Below, piece by piece: positions 17,404-26,261 of a stretch of 60,983 nucleotides of DNA. The translations under genes were made by a program, and so were the position numbers. The notes beneath the pieces were generated by a model, which was not told the origin of the DNA, searched no databases, and saw only the letters and a list, made by a program, of their open reading frames with translations. How positions within the stretch are numbered: the stretch's first letter is position 1; each line of letters begins with the position of its first letter. Location of the stretch: sequence record SRR31156797_4417. One strand, given 5' to 3'.

Positions 17404-18324
17404 CTAAGCAACGGCTGTAGCTGGTTCCAGAATGTCGCCACCAAACACCTCCTCAGCAACACGAGGCTGAGTTAACACCTTCTCTTCCAAATACAAATCC
17501 CTATTTTCATCCAAATGACGCAGGAAGGAATTGTTTAATGCGTGACCAGAAGCGAACACTTCAAAGTGACCACGAATCGGTGCACCGAAAATCGCCATAT
17601 CACCGACAAAATCCAGCACCTTATGACGAACAAATTCATCCTTGAAACGAAGACCTTCTGCGTTAAGAATACCATATTCATCAAGGACGACTGCATTGTC
17701 GAGAGACCCACCAAGAGCCAAACCGTTTGCATGCAGATAGTCGACTTCTTTCAAGAAACCGAACGTGCGAGCCTTGGCAACTTCCTTAGCGAATGTGTCA
17801 GGAGTAATTTCAAGTTCCATCTGTTGGCGACCAATAAGAGGATGGGCAAAATCTATAATGTAATCGATACGAAACCCATCATACGGACGAGCCTTGATGT
17901 ATTTACCATCTTGCTCAAATTCGATATTTTTCTTAATCGCCATGACCTTACGGGCCTTGCTCAATGTACGAATACCGGCCTGCTTAAGTAAATAAACAAA
18001 AGAAGCAGCACTACCATCCATGATGGGCAATTCGCGTCCTGAAACTTCGATTTGAATATTATCAATACCCATACCGTTAATTGCGGCCATGAGATGTTCG
18101 ACAGTAGCAACGGTTTCGCGACCATCACCCAGCACAGTAGCAAGACTGGTCTCAACAACCAAAGACGGAGCGGGAGTCAAAAAGGTGGAACCGGAACCAT
18201 TGCGTAGAGCAAAGAGAATTCCAGTGTCCTCGGCCGCGGGACGCAACACCAACTCCACCTGCTTCCCGCTATGAAGTCCAATGCCCGTACAACGGACCGA
18301 TTTATGTATAGTAGTCTGAGACAT
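17404..18324 (-). CDS. lpxC: UDP-3-O-acyl-N-acetylglucosamine deacetylase
   Basis: GIGLHSG, TVEHL, PIMDGS, ARTFGF, GGSLDNA, RHKVLDFVGD, GHALN. Confidence 0.98.
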   Translation of the reverse strand: MSQTTIHKSVRCTGIGLHSGKQVELVLRPAAEDTGILFALRNGSGSTFLTPAPSLVVETSLATVLGDGRETVATVEHLMAAINGMGIDNIQIEVSGRELPIMDGSAASFVYLLKQAGIRTLSKARKVMAIKKNIEFEQDGKYIKARPYDGFRIDYIIDFAHPLIGRQQMELEITPDTFAKEVAKARTFGFLKEVDYLHANGLALGGSLDNAVVLDEYGILNAEGLRFKDEFVRHKVLDFVGDMAIFGAPIRGHFEVFASGHALNNSFLRHLDENRDLYLEEKVLTQPRVAEEVFGGDILEPATAVA

Positions 18325-18356
18325 TATTCCTCCGGTAATTAACCTAAATCATTACA

Positions 18357-18372
18357 AGCAAGAACAATGCCA
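18357..18372 (-). promoter_or_regulatory. sigma54 promoter of lpxC
   Basis: Minus strand TGGCATTGTTCTTGCT, near-consensus TGGCAC-N5-TTGC, about 33 bp upstream of the lpxC start. Confidence 0.8.
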
Positions 18373-18439
18373 CTTAGCGATGCACTAGTAAACTATCAAA
18401 AAGATTGAATTAATTAAGAATACGTCTTTCTAAAACAGT

Positions 18440-18506
18440 GTTGCTTTCTCGCAACTAATTGTATTTTTACAACAACAATTTTTAACTATTGTTGCATTTA
18501 TACGAT
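18440..18506. promoter_or_regulatory. Three palindromic upstream activator sites (GTTGY-N6-RCAAC)
   Basis: GTTGC-TTTCTC-GCAAC (18440-55), ATTGT-ATTTTT-ACAAC (18458-73), GTTGC-ATTTAT-ACGAT (18491-506). Confidence 0.6.
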
Positions 18507-19360
18507 TATAATTTTTGAGCACTGACAATACGATCATGTCCAGCAAGGTCTTTGATCACCTTAACCTGCCCAAATTGCGGAAAGAGATTGAGTATTATTT
18601 TTTTCACGCTATCCCCTTGCCCACAACCAATCTCCATAAGAAAATGCCCACCGCTTTTCAATGCTGCAAGCATTCCCGGAAGCATTTTTCTGACATGGTT
18701 GAGACCATCACTACCACTGACCAAAGCCATGGTTGGCTCAAAACGTGTGACCTCGTGACTTGCCTTATCGAATTCAGCCAGTGTCACATAAGGAGGATTG
18801 GAAACAATAAGATCGAAAAACTCTTCACCGAGGTTATCCTGCGTAAAATCAGCATGATGAAAACGGATACGTTTTTCAACGCCATGTTGAATGGCATTCC
18901 TCTTAGCAACCGCCAATGCCGCGGGACTAAGATCGATGGCCACACATTCAGATTTTAGGAAAAAAGAAGCAATGGTTACAGCAAGAATTCCTGACCCAGT
19001 TCCGAGATCAGCATAACTAAAACAAGCGTCTTTCCGATAGAGGGATTCAACCTCCTCAACGATATGCTCAGTTTCAGGCCGCGGTATCAAAACATCCGGC
19101 GTGACAAAAAAATCCAAACCGTAAAATTCTTTTTCACCCAGAATATAAGCAACAGGCTCGCCTGCAGCCCGCCTTTCAACAAGTGCATAAATCTCTACGA
19201 ACTCTTCATCGGTCACGACTCGCTCTTGATCAATAATCAACGATAGACGTGAACAATCAAGGACATGTGCTATAAGTAGCTCAGCACTCAAACGAGGTGA
19301 ATCAACCCCGTTCAAACGAGTTTCGCACTCATTAAGAATAGATAAAATTGCGGGAGACAA
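18506..19360 (-). CDS. prmC: Release factor glutamine methyltransferase
   Basis: GEPVAYILG, VLIPRPETE, DLGTGSG, SNPPY; downstream of prfA. Confidence 0.97.
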   Translation of the reverse strand: MSPAILSILNECETRLNGVDSPRLSAELLIAHVLDCSRLSLIIDQERVVTDEEFVEIYALVERRAAGEPVAYILGEKEFYGLDFFVTPDVLIPRPETEHIVEEVESLYRKDACFSYADLGTGSGILAVTIASFFLKSECVAIDLSPAALAVAKRNAIQHGVEKRIRFHHADFTQDNLGEEFFDLIVSNPPYVTLAEFDKASHEVTRFEPTMALVSGSDGLNHVRKMLPGMLAALKSGGHFLMEIGCGQGDSVKKIILNLFPQFGQVKVIKDLAGHDRIVSAQKL

Positions 19361-19382
19361 TGTGAGAGTCCCGTATCAACGA

Positions 19383-20450
19383 TTAATCGCCTTGACGTTT
19401 CATCGCCTCAGCCTGATAATGGCTGATCAAGGCCTCGGTCAACTCCTGAAGTTCACCTTCCATGATTTGCGGCAACTTATGTAACGTCAAGTTGATACGA
19501 TGATCAGACACTCGTCCCTGCGGATAATTATACGTACGAATACGCTCGGAACGGTCACCAGAACCAACTTGACTGCGACGTGTTGCATCTTCTTCTGCTT
19601 TGGCCTTTTCCTGCTCCAACTGTAAAAGTCGAGAACGCAGGACTTTCATGGCCTTGGCCTTATTCTTATGCTGAGACTTCTCATCCTGACAAATAACGAC
19701 CAATCCGGTCGGAACATGTGTAATGCGAATAGCGGAATCGGTAGTGTTGACCGACTGTCCACCTGGACCTGAAGCCCGAAACACGTCAACACGCAAGTCT
19801 TCATTACGGATATTTACATCTACTTCCTCGGCCTCAGCCATGATAGCCACGGTCACTGCGGAAGTATGAATACGTCCCTGAGACTCAGTTGCCGGTACAC
19901 GCTGTACACGATGAGTGCCAGACTCATACTTGAGCTTACTGTATACTTTTTCACCAGAAATAGAAGCAATGACCTCCTTAAGTCCACCGGAACCAGTGGA
20001 GTTGGAGCTCATCTCCTCAACTTTCCATCTGTTATCCTCAGCGTAGCGAGAATACATACGATAGAGATTGGCAGCAAAAAGCGCGGCTTCATCGCCACCG
20101 GTACCTGCTCGAATTTCAAGAATGATATTCTTCTCATCCATGGGATCTTTTGGCAAAAGAAGTACTTTAAGTTGCGCTTCAAGCTTAGGAAGTTCCCCTT
20201 CAATTTCAGCAATCTCGGCCTTAGCCATCTCCTGGATGTCGGGATCCGAGTCGTGTAAAAGCTCCTGATTGTCAGTCAATTCCTGAGAAAATTCTTTGTA
20301 CTTGCGAAAGACTGTGACCATATCACCAAGGTCTGCATGTGCTTTGGAAACCTTTTTATACCGTTCCTGATCATTAAAAATATCAGGTTGGGCAAGCTCC
20401 TGTTCCAATTCTTCGTATTTAACTTCAATCTCTTCAAGCTTGCCGAACAT
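19383..20450 (-). CDS. prfA: Peptide chain release factor 1
   Basis: GGQ motif, PxT anticodon (VPATE), GRIHTS; start taken at MFGKLEE. Confidence 0.98.
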
Positions 20451-20452
20451 AA

Positions 20453-21400
20453 TTAGCACTCCTCGGGATTAACAGCGCATTGCAAAGCGGCTATGGCAAC
20501 TTCGATCTGACTGTCGTCTGGTTCCTTGGTCGTCAACAACTGCATCATGAGCCCAGGCCAGCACATAATTTTGCATAACGCATTCTTGCTATACTTACCG
20601 GCAAACTTAATCATTTCATAGGCAACGCAACTAACCGGAACCATGAGAAAAAGCTTCATGCCTACAATATACAAATGCTTAACCATAAAATTTTCTGGGG
20701 AATAAAAAGTAAGCAGGTACGGAACTAAAACTGCATACAACAAGATGGAAACAACCAAGACAAAAAGTAAGAAAGCGGTTCCGCAACGGGGATGCAACCG
20801 ACTATAAAAACGTGTGGAATCAGGGGTAAGCTTTTTACCATCTTCCCAAGTCCAAATAACCTTATGCTCCGCGCCATGATATTCGAAAACGCGACGAATG
20901 TCAGGGATGAGGGATATGGAAACGATATACCCCACAAAAACGAGCATTTTGATGAAACCATCCCATGCATGAAAACTCAAAGAATCAACATCGCCTGCCC
21001 AACCGAGATATTCCATACCTACGGACAAAAAGTGGGGCAAAACCACAAACAGACCAAGTGCAGCTCCGAGGGCAATAACCATCGTCATGACGAGGTGCCA
21101 TGATGTTAATTCTCCACCCTCTTCCTCGTCGTCTGCGGCCTGCATAGCAGAATAATTAAGCGCCTTGATCCCATTAACCATAGTTTCCATAAGAACCGGA
21201 AAACCACGAAGAAAAGGCTTCTTGAGCAAGGGATGCTTCACCATGGTAAACCACGGCCTGACATCTGTGACGATTTCTCCATCTGATTTACGAATGGCAA
21301 TAGCCAGCTTATCTTTGGCGCGCATCATGACGCCTTCAATAACGGCCTGACCACCGACGGCCTGAGGAGCGGCCATCGTCAAAAGTCCTCGCAGATTCAA
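20453..21400 (-). CDS. DUF1385 family membrane protein
   Basis: [35 protein letters not shown] start at 21400 after GGAGGG (alternative ATG 21376); typical rpmE-DUF1385-prfA-prmC context. Confidence 0.9.
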
Positions 21401-21518
21401 GTAGTTACCCTCCGCTAATGGGTGGTAGTATTGACAGATCGCAGGAAAACCCCTGCGAATCACACAGGCAACAGAATTAAGTATTCCCTGGAGATTGTAA
21501 AGCCCGTCATACAATAGA

Positions 21519-21557
21519 ATATGCCTTCGCAGGGTCTTCACCCTAACGAAGGCATAT
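21519..21557 (-). terminator. Hairpin downstream of rpmE (terminator or stability element)
   Basis: ATATGCCTTCG / CGAAGGCATAT outer stem with inner AGGGT/ACCCT stem. Confidence 0.55.
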
Positions 21558-21582
21558 GCTTTCGGCACAAGGCCGGGAAAAG

Positions 21583-21807
21583 CTACTTTTTCTGAGCGAG
21601 GGAATTCAGATCGCCGTACTTCTTACGGAAACGATCAATACGGCCTGCGGTGTCAACAAAACGCTGCTTGCCTGTGTAAAAAGGATGGCAATTGGAGCAG
21701 ATTTCTACTTCCAGCTCTTCGCCCTTTGTGGTCAACAATTCAGACTCGTACCCGCAGTGGCAACGAATTTTTGCCTTGTAGGTCTTGGGATGAATATCGT
21801 TCTTCAT
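21583..21807 (-). CDS. rpmE: 50S ribosomal protein L31 (zinc-binding type)
   Basis: [35 protein letters not shown]. Confidence 0.98.
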
Positions 21808-21980
21808 GACTATCTCCTGTCATTCTTTTTGCGTGGAACTCGGTCTTATACGCACTGGCCCACCGGTTGGCAAGTAAAAAATCAAGCCTTTTTCCAGACA
21901 ATGAAAGCATTTCATTTCTTTCGAGGACGCTTGAGACACTTACACCATATGATATTAAAGCTGCGTCGAACAGCCTCGAG

Positions 21981-22014
21981 AAAAATGAAAGGCGGACGCC
22001 GGAGCGTCCGCCTT
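21981..22014 (-). terminator. Intrinsic terminator of dsrC
   Basis: AAGGCGGACGC / GCGTCCGCCTT stem followed on the minus strand by TCATTTTT. Confidence 0.8.
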
Positions 22015-22036
22015 GATAATCAAGCTCTGGTGCGGA

Positions 22037-22354
22037 CTAAACGCAGCCGGTGGGCTTGGGCAGGCCAGCCATCTTACAGGCTCCCTTACCAGGTCCGGAC
22101 GGGAACAGTTCGTAGATCTGCTTCAGCTTGAAGCCAGTGACCTTGGAAAGAATACGGACCATCGGTGCGATGCCGTTCTTCTTGTAGTAGTCCTGCAGGA
22201 AATCGATGACTTTCTGGTGATCTTCGGTGATTTCCTTGATACCTTCAGACTCTTTTACGTAGTCAACCCACTGCGGGGTCCAGTCTTCAAATTTCTGCAG
22301 GAAACCGTCTTCATCAACTTCAAAAGAAGCACCTTCAAATTCAACTACAGCCAT
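22037..22354 (-). CDS. dsrC: Dissimilatory sulfite reductase sulfur-carrier protein DsrC
   Basis: DEDGFL; LFPSGPGKGACKMAGLPKPTGCV with both C-terminal cysteines (Cx10C); strong AGGAGG SD. Confidence 0.98.
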   Translation of the reverse strand: MAVVEFEGASFEVDEDGFLQKFEDWTPQWVDYVKESEGIKEITEDHQKVIDFLQDYYKKNGIAPMVRILSKVTGFKLKQIYELFPSGPGKGACKMAGLPKPTGCV

Positions 22355-22483
22355 TGTATCCTCCTAATGGATGTTTTTCATGCTGTGCCCCCGAAACATT
22401 TCGAGGTAACCATATCCGTTTAAACAGCGATCCGCTGCTTAGATGCAATATAAAAAATACACACGGCCTCAAACCGTGCAGGG

Positions 22484-22512
22484 ACATTACGACCACGCAT
22501 ACCCTTTGTCAA
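22484..22512 (-). promoter_or_regulatory. sigma70 promoter of dsrC
   Basis: Minus strand TTGACA-N17-TAATGT, implying a leader of about 120 nt. Confidence 0.7.
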
Positions 22513-22568
22513 GCACAAGGCTCATTTCAATTCAAGAAATAAAGTCCCACTCTAACTATTCTAAATAA

Positions 22569-24296
22569 CTAAGATTCCAAGAGTTCATCTCGATGCTTGC
22601 GCGCGAAGTCCAGAGTCGAATCCATATCAAGTGCCGCATTCAAATAATCAAGGGCTTCAGAACGATTCCCCATGAACTTATGGCACAACCCCAAATTGGC
22701 AAGATCATGGGGTGAACCACTATCAATATCCAGTGAGGCCTGAAAGTTCTTCGCAGCCTCACTGTATCTTTCACTCTTGAAATGGGCAACGCCACGAAGA
22801 TTATAAAATTCTTTGCATTCCCGATCCAATTCGATAGCTCGATCGAGAGGTTCAATGGTTTCTTCCCATTCTTCCATCTGCGACAAAGCGTATGCCTGAT
22901 AAAATGCAGCCAGAGCTCTCTCCTGGTCTGCGGGCTGAAAAGGCTCTGCTTCCTCAAACTGTGCAGCTGCATACAAGGGGTCTCCCATGCGCAATGCTAA
23001 CAGTCCTCTAAAAAAAGGCAGGAAATACGCATCAGGATAAACCTCGGCTAACACCTCCAACCCTTCAGTCGCCTCATCAAAATCAACGTCTTCAGCGAGA
23101 ATTCGCCCAACAAATAAACCAATAGATCTATTGGGAGTCCGCTCTCGAAAATCAAAACCAGGGACAACATTATAGTTGGTGGTGACCATCAATTCAGGGT
23201 GTCGGGTGTCGACGGCATAAAGAGTATTCCCTTTGTCCCGCAATCCATTCGAAAGAGCCATCAATTCATTATATATATCTGAATCCTCAACAGTAGGCAG
23301 AGAATCCAAAGGCACGACAGGGCCTTCTTTGAGCCACTTGATCTGTTCAAGTTCAGTAAATTTTGACAACCCTGACGCTTCATACACCCGGCTGGTTTCA
23401 AAATCTCCCGCCAACTGAGCCACTTCGGTCACAGCCCTAATAGCAGCCTTGGCTGGAGAAGCTGCGGTACCAGCAGTGAACACGATTTCACTCAAAGCAG
23501 GAAACGTCTTTGGATCCCACGCCACAGCTGCAACCGTAGGCACAGGATACCCCATGGTAAAATCCTTGAGGATCAGTTTGACGCCGTTGCGCTCAAAACA
23601 CTCAACCAACCGAAGAAGAACTGTATCATCTAATGAAGCAGGATCAATAGTCGGGGTAGTTATCCGACTGCGATCGATCACGGCACAAACATGCCGTTCG
23701 ACCAATTCACAGGCTCCCTGACAGATGGATTCTTCAAAAGTGTTTCCGGCAGACGATCCGTTGAACTCGTTAAGTTTCTTGAACCAATCCAATGGAACAT
23801 ACTCTGCCTGTCCAGTACTGACGTTCAACGCAGGATGAAACCGCCACTTCACAAGATCCATGAGACGAATCGCCTCCGGTTCGGAAATGTCTTCTTCAAC
23901 GGACAAAATAACCTGTCGGATATCCATGATCGAATCAGACCACTTTGCAGCAGCTTCTGACCATGTCAGTTCAGTAAAATTAGTCGCGTCAGCCCAAAAA
24001 CTGAAATAGGAAAACCGTTCAACCAACTCCATAAGAGCAGAAGCTTCAGCCTGCTCAGGAGATGCCCCTTTACCCATCTGCTTACGAGTGGGCATAATTT
24101 CCCGCGCCTCTGGTCCGCACACACTGACAAAAACAGGGATACCGAGTCTCCCGGTATCAACTCGATCTGTCTCGCCAAGAACACCTTTGCACTTATCTGC
24201 CAAAGCCGCTTTAACTCGTGCCACAGTCTCCTGAGGGCTACAGGCCTTATCTTGATCAGTGGTAAATTCCTTCAGACATTGCTTAAGTTCAATCAC
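22569..24296 (-). CDS. YcaO-family ATP-dependent backbone-modifying enzyme with C-terminal TPR repeats
   Basis: GKG..PEQAEASALMELVER, SSAGNTFEESICQGACELVER and RAVTEVAQ YcaO motifs; TPR-like C-terminus (YNLRGVAHFK, LANLGLCHK). Confidence 0.9.
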   Translation of the reverse strand: MIELKQCLKEFTTDQDKACSPQETVARVKAALADKCKGVLGETDRVDTGRLGIPVFVSVCGPEAREIMPTRKQMGKGASPEQAEASALMELVERFSYFSFWADATNFTELTWSEAAAKWSDSIMDIRQVILSVEEDISEPEAIRLMDLVKWRFHPALNVSTGQAEYVPLDWFKKLNEFNGSSAGNTFEESICQGACELVERHVCAVIDRSRITTPTIDPASLDDTVLLRLVECFERNGVKLILKDFTMGYPVPTVAAVAWDPKTFPALSEIVFTAGTAASPAKAAIRAVTEVAQLAGDFETSRVYEASGLSKFTELEQIKWLKEGPVVPLDSLPTVEDSDIYNELMALSNGLRDKGNTLYAVDTRHPELMVTTNYNVVPGFDFRERTPNRSIGLFVGRILAEDVDFDEATEGLEVLAEVYPDAYFLPFFRGLLALRMGDPLYAAAQFEEAEPFQPADQERALAAFYQAYALSQMEEWEETIEPLDRAIELDRECKEFYNLRGVAHFKSERYSEAAKNFQASLDIDSGSPHDLANLGLCHKFMGNRSEALDYLNAALDMDSTLDFARKHRDELLES

Positions 24297-25018
24297 GCCT
24301 GTTTCCTCTTCATGCGGAACAAATTGACAACGTTCTCTTCACCAGTCTCTCTGTCCTTATACTTGGCGGCTGATTTCATCATGGAATACTGCTCATTTGC
24401 CATGTCAAAGAACTTTCGGCCCTGCCGCTTTTGATCCATGGCAAGGACAATCTCGGCAGCCGAATCGTCAGACAGATGACTGCTCAAGAATTTCAACAAA
24501 GGCTCAAAAGCAGCCTCAGCATAAAGAACTTCGCACCCAATAATGTAATCAAAACGCTTTTCAACCGCATCTGCCGTGAAATCGACACGATGCAATGTAA
24601 GTTTATCATCTACCGCATTTTTCAACGCGTTAATCTTACTAAACAACAAAGCAAATGGATCTACATCGCTTACCGTTACTTGATGACCGAGCTTTGCCAA
24701 AACAAGGCTGTTGACCGCCCCACCAGCACCTACTTCCAAAATGGAACAATCATCGGGGAAGGGAAACTTTGTCAGAGTGTAGCCAAGAATAAGACAGGAA
24801 GGCCATATCTTGGCCCATAAAGGCAAAGTTATTTTTTTTCCAGCCCGAGTCTTATCAATAAGTTTATCTAAATATTGCTGCATATTCTTGATCTGCAACA
24901 CTTCAAGAGACATACCACCCACGTTAACCGTCTCGAATTCGACTTCGCCGAACTCGCGCACAGCTATGTCAATAAGCGCACCAATAGGCTGGTCCAAATT
25001 ATGAACTATATCCGCCAC
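24293..25018 (-). CDS. Class I SAM-dependent methyltransferase (METTL21/Methyltransf_16-like)
   Basis: PLWAKIWPS, LEVGAG, VTVSD, FDYIIGCEVLY; 4-bp overlap with the YcaO gene. Confidence 0.85.
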   Translation of the reverse strand: MADIVHNLDQPIGALIDIAVREFGEVEFETVNVGGMSLEVLQIKNMQQYLDKLIDKTRAGKKITLPLWAKIWPSCLILGYTLTKFPFPDDCSILEVGAGGAVNSLVLAKLGHQVTVSDVDPFALLFSKINALKNAVDDKLTLHRVDFTADAVEKRFDYIIGCEVLYAEAAFEPLLKFLSSHLSDDSAAEIVLAMDQKRQGRKFFDMANEQYSMMKSAAKYKDRETGEENVVNLFRMKRKQA

Positions 25019-25055
25019 TTTTCCTCCGAATATGATTTGTCTCGGAAAACTGAGA

Positions 25056-25781
25056 CTACTGATCTACTTTATTGATCTTTTCCAGAACCCACAATGCACC
25101 CGAAACAGTGTCATCCCGAGAAAATTCCCAGACGACTCGCTGGTGAACAGGCTGTCCGCCCTCCCCAACCCTGAGCTGCGCATCATAAAACACTGTGGCC
25201 ATGGTCCGACCTTCTTCCGACTTCATTTCCATCATTTTTGCATTGAGCAACATGACCTCTGTAAGACCCTGCCCAGCTTGACTTATGGCATCGTTGTAGA
25301 CTTCATCGGAAATAAAATCCCGAAGAGCCTGAAAATTCTGTTCGCCACTCGCCTGTTGAAATCGAGAATAGAAAACTTTGGCCCCTTCCAAGAATTCGGT
25401 TTCATCAAAACCATCCGCTCTTGCCGAAGGCGTCGCTGTAGGTGTGGTAGGAATCGAACGCTCATCATCCCCGGAACTGAGCATATCCCAAGTCTGACGC
25501 GCAGCCTCATGCCGATCCATGGGGCGAGCGGAACGCTTTGCCGGGCGCTCCGAAGAATCATCAGAGGTATCCTCGTTCTGGTCACGACTACCCCATGAAT
25601 CAGAGCGGGTCTTATCACCACCGGAACGACGACGAAAGGATCTCACAAGAAAATAGGCTATGCCCGCAAGAAGCAAGATGTTCAGGATGCCACCGCCGCG
25701 ACTGGCAGGTGCCTCTTGAGCAAAGGCTGGCGAAACCATTACAAATAATGAGAAGACAACTCCAAGACAACGGAAGCTCAT
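25056..25781 (-). CDS. Tim44-like domain membrane protein
   Basis: Signal/TM segments, FDETEFLEGAK..Y.RFQ, VWEFSR...WVL; start chosen at MSFRCLG (ORF is open to 25862). Confidence 0.8.
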   Translation of the reverse strand: MSFRCLGVVFSLFVMVSPAFAQEAPASRGGGILNILLLAGIAYFLVRSFRRRSGGDKTRSDSWGSRDQNEDTSDDSSERPAKRSARPMDRHEAARQTWDMLSSGDDERSIPTTPTATPSARADGFDETEFLEGAKVFYSRFQQASGEQNFQALRDFISDEVYNDAISQAGQGLTEVMLLNAKMMEMKSEEGRTMATVFYDAQLRVGEGGQPVHQRVVWEFSRDDTVSGALWVLEKINKVDQ

Positions 25782-25862
25782 CCGCTCAACCCACTTCGAC
25801 AATGATACGAAAATATGTGTGTGCATAAACTGATATGTAATTGAGAATCCCGATCCAGGCAA

Positions 25863-26261
25863 TCACTCAATAAGAGCCAGGTCTCGAAGAACTGCATAGA
25901 GACTTTCAACTTCAATAGGCTTGGGAAGATAGGCGGCCGCTCCGCCTTTGTAATAGGCTTTGACCACGGTCTTGGGATCATTAAGAGCGGTAATCATAAT
26001 AACTTTCGCTTCGTCGGAAGACCGAACTCCCGCATCCTGTTCGATAACACGGATGTCCTTCAAAGCCTGATGTCCATCTTTATTGGGCATCATTATATCC
26101 ATGCAGACCAAATCGTAAGGCGAATTTTCGTCAAGAGCCATTTTAAATAACTCGACACACTCAACCCCATCAGATGCGGTGTCACACTGCCCATAATCGG
26201 ACAGTAAGGCCGTCAACAATTTGCGGCTGGTAAATTCGTCTTCGACAATCAAAATACGCAT
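25863..26261 (-). CDS. Single-domain response regulator (CheY-like)
   Basis: LIVEDE, MDIMMP, MITAL, YLPKP. Confidence 0.93.
   Translation of the reverse strand: MRILIVEDEFTSRKLLTALLSDYGQCDTASDGVECVELFKMALDENSPYDLVCMDIMMPNKDGHQALKDIRVIEQDAGVRSSDEAKVIMITALNDPKTVVKAYYKGGAAAYLPKPIEVESLYAVLRDLALIE

Follow-up and report, generated by a model that had tools for sequence, protein, structure and literature searches.

What do a methyltransferase and a YcaO enzyme act on when their genes overlap and stand directly upstream of dsrC? The question is raised by a minus-strand locus in a 60,983-nt stretch of DNA (sequence record SRR31156797_4417; this whole stretch is called the window here), whose organism is a Pseudodesulfovibrio, judged by its named relatives. 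The locus encodes an S-adenosylmethionine (SAM)-dependent methyltransferase (MT), a YcaO protein with C-terminal tetratricopeptide repeats (YcaO-TPR) and DsrC. We tentatively propose that in sulfite and sulfate reducers of the Dsr type the MT and YcaO-TPR quite possibly work together as a module for post-translational modification, with DsrC as the most likely target. The proposal draws on gene anatomy, family memberships, linkage, co-occurrence and residue covariation, and a DsrC-modifying module is the simplest account of the enzyme types, the coupling of the two genes, their linkage to dsrC, the nested distribution of the proteins, the covariation of DsrC residues and mass shifts already published for DsrC.

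The MT gene (24293..25018, minus strand) encodes 241 aa from a GTG start that is preceded by GGAGGA. Its TGA stop and the GTG start of ycaO share bases 24293-24296 (context gcGTGAtt), which is the 4-base overlap described in the initial annotation. The ycaO gene (22569..24296, minus strand) encodes a 575-aa protein of the DVU2210 family with PF02624 YcaO at 192.5 bits (cut-off 25.7) and TIGR00702 at 108.2 bits (cut-off 75.65). The YcaO domain proper spans residues 74-381 (23154..24077; PF02624 E 1.5e-56, profile positions 1-324 of 325) and is followed by a TPR domain at about residues 392-575 (22572..23123), where TPR_1, TPR_2, TPR_16 and related matches run from residue 397 to ~567. The ATP/Mg glutamates are indeed intact: an alignment of 18 family members shows no variation at S86, E90, E93, R94, E189, Q193, E197, E200 and R201, and the stretch SAGNTFEESICQGACELVER fits the motif Sx6-7Ex3Qx3ExxER, as quoted in the available part of PMC7774982, together with an upstream S...E..ER.

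The best family model for this protein is TIGR03266, the YcaO of McrA-glycine thioamidation (E 5.5e-33, 114.4 bits), at a score below the equivalog cut-off of 365. TIGR03604 SagD, the azoline-forming TOMM cyclodehydratase, reaches 73.9 bits (cut-off 219.25) and NF040716, the E. coli-type YcaO, only 55 bits (cut-off 700). Since all three scores lie below their cut-offs, the window YcaO falls outside all named subfamilies. The E. coli-type label that appears in some database names (S12/RimO helper) was rejected, as NF040716 is far below its cut-off. The nearest solved YcaO by sequence is M. jannaschii MJ1094. An AF2 model built on the alignment of 18 family members has a mean pLDDT of 91.9, with helical repeats at ~392-574. 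Foldseek assigns a probability of 1.00 to many YcaO structures; its top matches are the thioamide-forming YcaOs 6peu and 6pe3 (6peu, E 2.9e-17), the model aligns full-length with E. coli YcaO 4q85, and TPR structures match the C-terminal part. The protein is acidic (pI 4.58), and 16 of 17 other family members have a pI of 4.74-5.85 (one, 8.39).

The MT contains a Methyltransf_16 domain (PF10294, 49.1 bits, cut-off 21), and among solved structures METTL21A, D, B and C come closest to it (METTL21A 4lec, E 2.6e-6). Motif I, LExGAGxG, and an E-x-x-Y/F after motif II are kept in 33 MT family members; a (D/E)xx(Y/F) motif marks the Methyltransf_16 family. By this domain match and these motifs the enzyme is a member of the protein-lysine methyltransferase family, with the corresponding predicted activity. 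The MT-YcaO junction is overlapping or only a few bases long in most loci (ORF starts are approximate).

The next co-oriented gene, 214 nt downstream, is a genuine dsrC, as first annotated (22037..22354, minus strand). Its 105-aa product, the candidate substrate, belongs to the TusE/DsrC sulfur-relay family (PF04358, E 4.8e-36; TIGR03342, 119.6 bits, cut-off 53.5) and ends ...GPGKGACKMAGLPKPTGCV with both C-terminal cysteines, CysB93 and CysA104, which lie within ...GACKMAGLPKPTGCV. It has Gly89 and Met95, which mark it as type A (see below), and a pI of 5.0 as a whole and of 9.9 for the C-terminal half. DsrC couples sulfite reduction to energy conservation, and few proteins of the sulfur cycle have been studied as much.

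The 214-nt spacer between ycaO and dsrC (22355..22568, minus strand) is kept as DNA in close relatives. A consensus scan placed a terminator-like hairpin after ycaO (22480-22460) and one promoter-like site (22381-22353) with 9/12 matches. It is plausible that dsrC is transcribed separately from ycaO. The earlier suggestion that dsrC has its own promoter needs to be qualified, as the region contains 7 promoter-like sites against 5.8 expected by chance. In the dsrC leader (22460-22513), TTGACA, 17 nt and TAATGT are followed directly by the hairpin at 22480-22460, ~105 nt before the dsrC start; this hairpin could be a leader structure or an attenuator.

Partners typical of other YcaO systems are missing, as had been noted. 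No TfuA, E1/ThiF-like partner, dehydrogenase or exporter was found among the Pfam matches of the neighbour genes in the window, and TfuA (PF07812) was detected in none of five YcaO-bearing genomes searched (0/5), with Methanosarcina acetivorans as a positive control. Small ORFs (51, 32 and 27 aa) within or next to the spacer were rejected as precursor peptides, since their conservation is at the DNA level only, is limited to close relatives and is interrupted by frame breaks. The absence of a conserved precursor ORF, of TfuA and of an E1-like partner supports the earlier view that the pair modifies proteins and is not part of a cluster for a peptide natural product.

The genes are linked to different degrees across genomes. 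Full-length YcaO-TPR is present in 39 of 41 relatives, the exceptions being a genome with a TPR-level match only (G006) and one that is 81% complete (G016), and the searches found one full-length copy per Desulfovibrionales genome. In the same genus, MT lies directly upstream in 12/12 loci and dsrC is adjacent in 12/12. At the order level (20 loci, 8 families), MT is directly upstream in 17/20 (1 not assessable) and dsrC directly downstream in 18/20. The best 80 matches in a search of named genomes are all from Desulfovibrionales; where these named loci have enough flank, MT is upstream in 59/73 and dsrC adjacent in 31/71. By these counts, the MT-YcaO pair is the more stable unit within the order. 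One relative (L026) is missing MT, and its Tim44-like gene adjoins ycaO.

Forty phylum-level loci (31 families, ~38% YcaO identity) show MT upstream in none (0/40) and dsrC adjacent in 10, from 8 families. The dsrC gene is downstream in seven of these families and upstream in one (f25), between valS and an enolase gene. An EF-G-like gene precedes ycaO in 6 of the 8 phylum-level loci with dsrC downstream. The flanking genes are unrelated among the distant ycaO-dsrC loci, and the spacers range from ~85 to 340 nt (ORF starts approximate). The expected linkage to dsrC thus recurs in varied arrangements, and YcaO tracks dsrB and one DsrC subtype (below), but adjacency itself is confined to the fractions given here for the named and phylum-level loci.

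Families f38 (L153, L154, L156) and f27 (L035:1484-3450, L159) have a second, shorter YcaO (~490-513 aa), whose TPR is short and whose PF02624 match has E 2.9e-72. This paralogue stands ~0.5 kb downstream of a true dsrC in 3/13 loci, all from one genus of f38, and directly upstream of a divergent dsrC-like gene, whose product ends ...RAICKIAGLPKPTGCI, in 2/13.

Other genes recur around ycaO and dsrC. A conserved protein of ~490-600 aa, with no Pfam or NCBIfam match, is encoded directly downstream of dsrC in six loci (L053, L055, L059, L063, L064 and L065; e.g. L064:6147-7742), in a clade with the order EF-G-like, (DUF2934/DUF5335), YcaO, dsrC. MoaE follows dsrC in Desulfovibrionales. Where dsrC is elsewhere, ycaO adjoins sulfur-handling genes: a NIL-4Fe4S ferredoxin with HcyBio and Thi4 in 4 loci (L052, L066, L062, L071), a JAB/desampylase-like gene in 2 (L033, L067) and LarE in 1 (L045; 317.7 bits, cut-off 150). 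These scattered neighbours lend some colour to sulfur chemistry and none to a particular target.

To assess co-occurrence, a single draw of 301 genomes from the phylum Desulfobacterota was searched for YcaO, dsrB, DsrC and MT; related genomes are not independent, and kinship inflates any statistic on this draw. YcaO was detected at E<=1e-30 in 104/301 genomes (G080 and G184 only via the shorter paralogue) and dsrB in 157/301. Both are present in 102 genomes, YcaO only in 2, dsrB only in 55 and neither in 142; the two YcaO-only genomes both have DsrC, and one of them is 61% complete. The YcaO-TPR family was found only in dsrB/DsrC-bearing Desulfobacterota. DsrC itself separates into type A (E<=9.1e-45, at least 68% identity; 111 genomes, 104 with YcaO) and type B (E>=3.6e-41, 55-63% identity among those listed; 54 genomes, 0 with YcaO). 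Methyltransf_16 homologues occur in 86/301 genomes, 72 of them at E<=1e-17, and 69 of these 72 have YcaO. MT, YcaO-TPR, type A DsrC and dsrB are thus nested genome sets with few exceptions (3/72 MT-bearing genomes without YcaO).

Outside Desulfovibrionales, the MT orthologue is unlinked to ycaO. Two unlinked MTs find the YcaO-adjacent MT as the best match in the nearest genome (89.5 vs 68.1 bits and 77.6 vs 64.9 bits), and a tree places the second Methyltransf_16 gene carried by this genome (G001, L225:3680-4399) on a long branch outside the 33 others. From the reciprocal best matches and the tree, the unlinked MTs are orthologues of the YcaO-adjacent MT. No neighbour is common to the 19 unlinked-MT loci, except prmC, which lies directly downstream in two loci of one family (f38; L177, L184); in the window, prmC is ~5 kb downstream of the MT-ycaO pair. 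The second paralogue in G001 stands upstream of nikR and folE2.

The DsrC subtypes differ near the proposed site of modification. In the alignment (n=68), 48 sequences come from YcaO-bearing genomes (28 encoded next to ycaO, 20 at a distance), 5 are type A sequences from YcaO-less genomes and the other 15 are of type B; L025, whose sequence is partly masked, and the dsrC-like protein encoded in L035 were excluded from this count. Nine positions share no residue between the YcaO-bearing and type B groups, and within residues 77-105 only positions 89 and 95 behave in this way. Position 89 is Gly in 48/48 sequences from YcaO-bearing genomes and Ala in 15/15 of type B, and position 95 is Met in the former group and Leu, Val or Ile in the latter. 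Type B DsrC has a third cysteine, at position 70 (RKLCK in L185-L199 vs RILSK in the window DsrC).

One member of the family already has a phenotype. The 'YcaO-like, TPR domain protein' DVU2210 of Desulfovibrio (Nitratidesulfovibrio) vulgaris Hildenborough (Zane, Wall and De Leon 2020, PMC7774982) has the same two-domain build as the window YcaO-TPR. Its published ATP-motif peptide is the same as the window protein at 17/20 residues and as a Nitratidesulfovibrio locus at 19/20. Given this peptide match and the single full-length copy per Desulfovibrionales genome, DVU2210 is very probably the orthologue. A sat mutant becomes molybdate-resistant when DVU2210 is deleted or when its ATP motif carries S195R, according to the available part of PMC7774982. 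Since either change relieves molybdate sensitivity, the enzyme is active in vivo; the phenotype indicates that DVU2210 turns over ATP in vivo and fits any model in which that activity is harmful with molybdate. The same paper states that the native function is unknown and, in its available part, mentions neither a methyltransferase nor DsrC. In evolved syntrophic cocultures, as reported in the accessible part of PMC8319347, DVU2210 is recurrently mutated and dsrC carries missense, not null, changes in six lines.

Mass shifts on DsrC have also been published. In the pull-downs of three baits, the native D. vulgaris DsrC peptide LK*EVYELFPSGPGK was tabulated with 'Trimethylation+Oxidation' (+42, +16) in the available part of PMC3125180. 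This peptide corresponds to DsrC residues 77-90, includes Gly89 and contains no Met, Cys or Trp. The +16 and +14n shifts that the initial annotation had predicted for DsrC thus appear in the table, as nominal masses. A second DsrC peptide, ESEGISDISPDHQK*IIDFLQDYYK, is trimethylated or acetylated at the equivalent of Lys48, and ApsA and ApsB carry trimethyl-lysines in the same organism (PMC3125180). The mass accuracy given there does not separate trimethylation from acetylation (0.036 Da apart); the available text names no enzyme for the DsrC and Aps marks, and 'methyltransferase' occurs in it 0 times. We take these DsrC shifts as a lead that matches the prediction, not as proof.

From these observations, we infer the chemistry, substrate and sites of the module as follows. 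The YcaO domain would bind ATP/Mg, and sulfide, which is abundant in the cells, would attack a backbone carbonyl; YcaO would phosphorylate the oxyanion, and the phosphate would leave to yield a thioamide. TfuA would not be required, as with the M. jannaschii and E. coli enzymes. The thioamide site would be in the hinge PSGPG89KG at the base of the DsrC C-terminal arm. The METTL21-type MT would trimethylate a conserved DsrC lysine, with Lys78 as the foremost candidate and Lys48 as another possibility. In its most specific form, which we put forward with considerable reserve, the proposal is that YcaO-TPR uses sulfide and ATP to form a DsrC thioamide at or near Gly89, and MT forms trimethyl-Lys78, in a large part of the Desulfobacterota; the two marks might tune arm movement or the trisulfide cycle, DsrC would be the third YcaO-thioamidated protein, and the Sat-independent molybdate target would be explained. 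To our knowledge, YcaO-made backbone thioamides have so far been reported in two proteins only, methyl-coenzyme M reductase and ribosomal uL16. Cells tolerate the loss of these other two protein thioamides, and that DVU2210 is not essential agrees with this. More protein substrates are still to be discovered, in the view of those who described uL16 thioamidation (PMC13063428, available part).

Several observations weigh against a module directed at DsrC. Neither enzyme has been tied to DsrC by experiment, nor has a modification been found to depend on either gene, and we know of no DsrC modification reported in the solved DsrAB-DsrC structures. The published +16 is a nominal mass and could be a hydroxylation or an artefact: backbone O-to-S exchange adds +15.977 Da and oxidation +15.995 Da. 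The +58 total on peptide 77-90 is also close to carboxymethylation, and ApsA and ApsB could be targets of the MT. Adjacency to dsrC is absent in 40/71 assessable named Desulfovibrionales loci and in 30/40 phylum-level loci. In D. vulgaris itself, the locus tags DVU2210 and DVU2776 suggest that ycaO and dsrC are far apart; in a close relative (G120, L027) MT is still upstream of ycaO, with dsrC ~0.7 Mb away. YcaO is missing from 55/157 dsrB-bearing genomes. Seven type A genomes are YcaO-less, and all five of these with a sequence keep Gly89 and Met95, so the Gly89/Met95 difference is not simply an effect of enzyme loss. The two DsrC subtypes may represent one deep split, in which case co-occurrence and covariation stem from very few evolutionary events. 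Finally, the DVU2210 single deletion grows normally by sulfate respiration (PMC7774982, available part).

The alternative that survives best, though we consider it unlikely, is that the module modifies another pathway or translation protein (ApsA/ApsB, DsrAB or a ribosomal protein), with DsrC nearby only as a sulfur donor or through shared regulation. The sulfur-relay family membership of DsrC, the sulfur-handling neighbours of ycaO in scattered lineages and the trimethyl-lysines of ApsA and ApsB in D. vulgaris would all suit this explanation, as would the ribosomal nature of the known bacterial YcaO protein substrate. However, sulfide is plentiful in these organisms and related enzymes use sulfide alone (PMC13063428, available part), so a dedicated donor seems unnecessary; the role of DsrC as sulfur donor, which had been suggested for this locus, is not supported. 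A universal ribosomal target would leave the restriction to type A DsrC genomes unexplained (102/104 also have dsrB), and the rpmE, prfA and prmC neighbourhood, once offered as a hint of a translation target, proved to be conserved only within the family. Nor would another target account for the Gly89/Met95 covariation and the +16 on the DsrC peptide.

It is distinctly improbable that there is no functional tie at all, with ycaO-dsrC proximity simply inherited and co-occurrence mirroring the clades that have both. Adjacency is kept where all other flanks differ, in both orientations and for the paralogue, and by our estimate two genes become immediate neighbours by chance in a genome of ~3,400 genes in roughly 6 of 10,000 cases. 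The nesting of MT, YcaO and type A DsrC, with 3/72 MT-bearing genomes without YcaO, argues in the same direction. What speaks for mere inheritance is that adjacency is missing in most lineages, that related genomes are not independent samples and that dsrC probably has its own promoter and terminator.

A tie to DsrC through other chemistry, for example cyclisation of Cys93 or Cys104 to a thiazoline (-18 Da) that masks a redox cysteine as a switch, is very doubtful. Azoline formation is the commonest YcaO chemistry, small residues precede both DsrC cysteines (A-C93 and G-C104), and the SagD model does match, below threshold. Yet that match reaches 73.9 of the 219 bits required, the neighbouring genes include neither an E1-like partner nor a dehydrogenase, and the closest relatives by sequence and fold form thioamides. 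The cysteines are invariant in both DsrC subtypes and therefore do not track YcaO, and the published shift is +16, not -18. Slighter still is the chance that YcaO is not a protein modifier and activates an oxyanion or small molecule with ATP, as proposed in the available part of PMC7774982 (adenosine 5'-molybdophosphate in a futile cycle), given that the molybdate resistance conferred by deletion of DVU2210 with sat, or by the ATP-motif change, can also be explained if an ATP-consuming enzyme acts on an abundant protein, that DVU2210 does not sensitise E. coli to molybdate, that all characterised YcaOs named in the cited papers, as far as these were available, act on peptide or protein backbones, and that the fused TPR, the coupled lysine methyltransferase and the DsrC-subtype pattern would be left unexplained.

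If the MT and YcaO-TPR do modify DsrC, a change in the hinge of its active arm would alter how the DsrC mechanism is modelled. An orphan gene with a molybdate phenotype would gain a function, the unexplained lysine methylation of sulfate-reduction proteins would be assigned an enzyme, and sulfate reducers would split into two DsrC types. YcaO-dependent protein thioamidation would also extend to a further substrate and a further host group, here with a coupled MT. The gene family and its phenotype are already published; the literature searched yielded nothing on the DsrC link, the partner MT, the DsrC subtypes or the proposed modification, nor any paper that connects YcaO or a thioamide with DsrC.

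The surroundings of the three genes are conserved among close relatives. The minus-strand order is response regulator (25863-26261), Tim44-like (25056-25862), MT, ycaO, dsrC, rpmE (L31), DUF1385, prfA, prmC and lpxC, and the block from the response regulator to lpxC (17404-26261) is syntenic in five same-genus loci with 6-kb flanks (L028-L032). A strong terminator-like hairpin lies 3' of dsrC (21989..22014, minus strand; consensus scan); its stem has 11 pairs (8 G-C), and a T run comes after it.

Among known systems, E. coli YcaO (4q84-4q86) has the same build as the window protein, a YcaO domain with a C-terminal TPR of ~150 residues, and the structural alignment covers 605-626 columns. The TPR that the initial annotation had set 'in place of' the usual tail is therefore no novelty. 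According to Rice et al. (2026, PMC13063428), the E. coli enzyme thioamidates folded uL16 with sulfide in vitro without TfuA and dimerises through its TPR; the E. coli and window YcaOs are both acidic proteins (pI 4.4 for EcYcaO in the available part of that paper vs 4.58 for the window YcaO). The two are only weakly related in sequence (phmmer E 5.8e-8 over 115 residues), and their domains are set differently, as follows from an rmsd of 12-13 A. Whereas the E. coli group belongs to Pseudomonadota and has a universal target, the window family belongs to Desulfobacterota and is coupled to an MT.

The methanogen YcaO that forms the McrA thioglycine (TIGR03266; MJ1094, 6pe3/6peu; M. kandleri, 6ci7) is the closest by sequence, fold and family model. 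The M. jannaschii and M. kandleri YcaOs work without TfuA. In contrast to the window YcaO, the methanogen enzyme has no TPR (target lengths 364-385), and the host and presumed target differ. Its target, McrA, is a key enzyme of anaerobic energy metabolism that, per the initial annotation, is also methylated. Compared with METTL21-type enzymes, the window MT represents a bacterial group, which in the 301-genome draw occurs almost entirely in YcaO-TPR genomes (69/72) and which is translationally coupled to ycaO in Desulfovibrionales.

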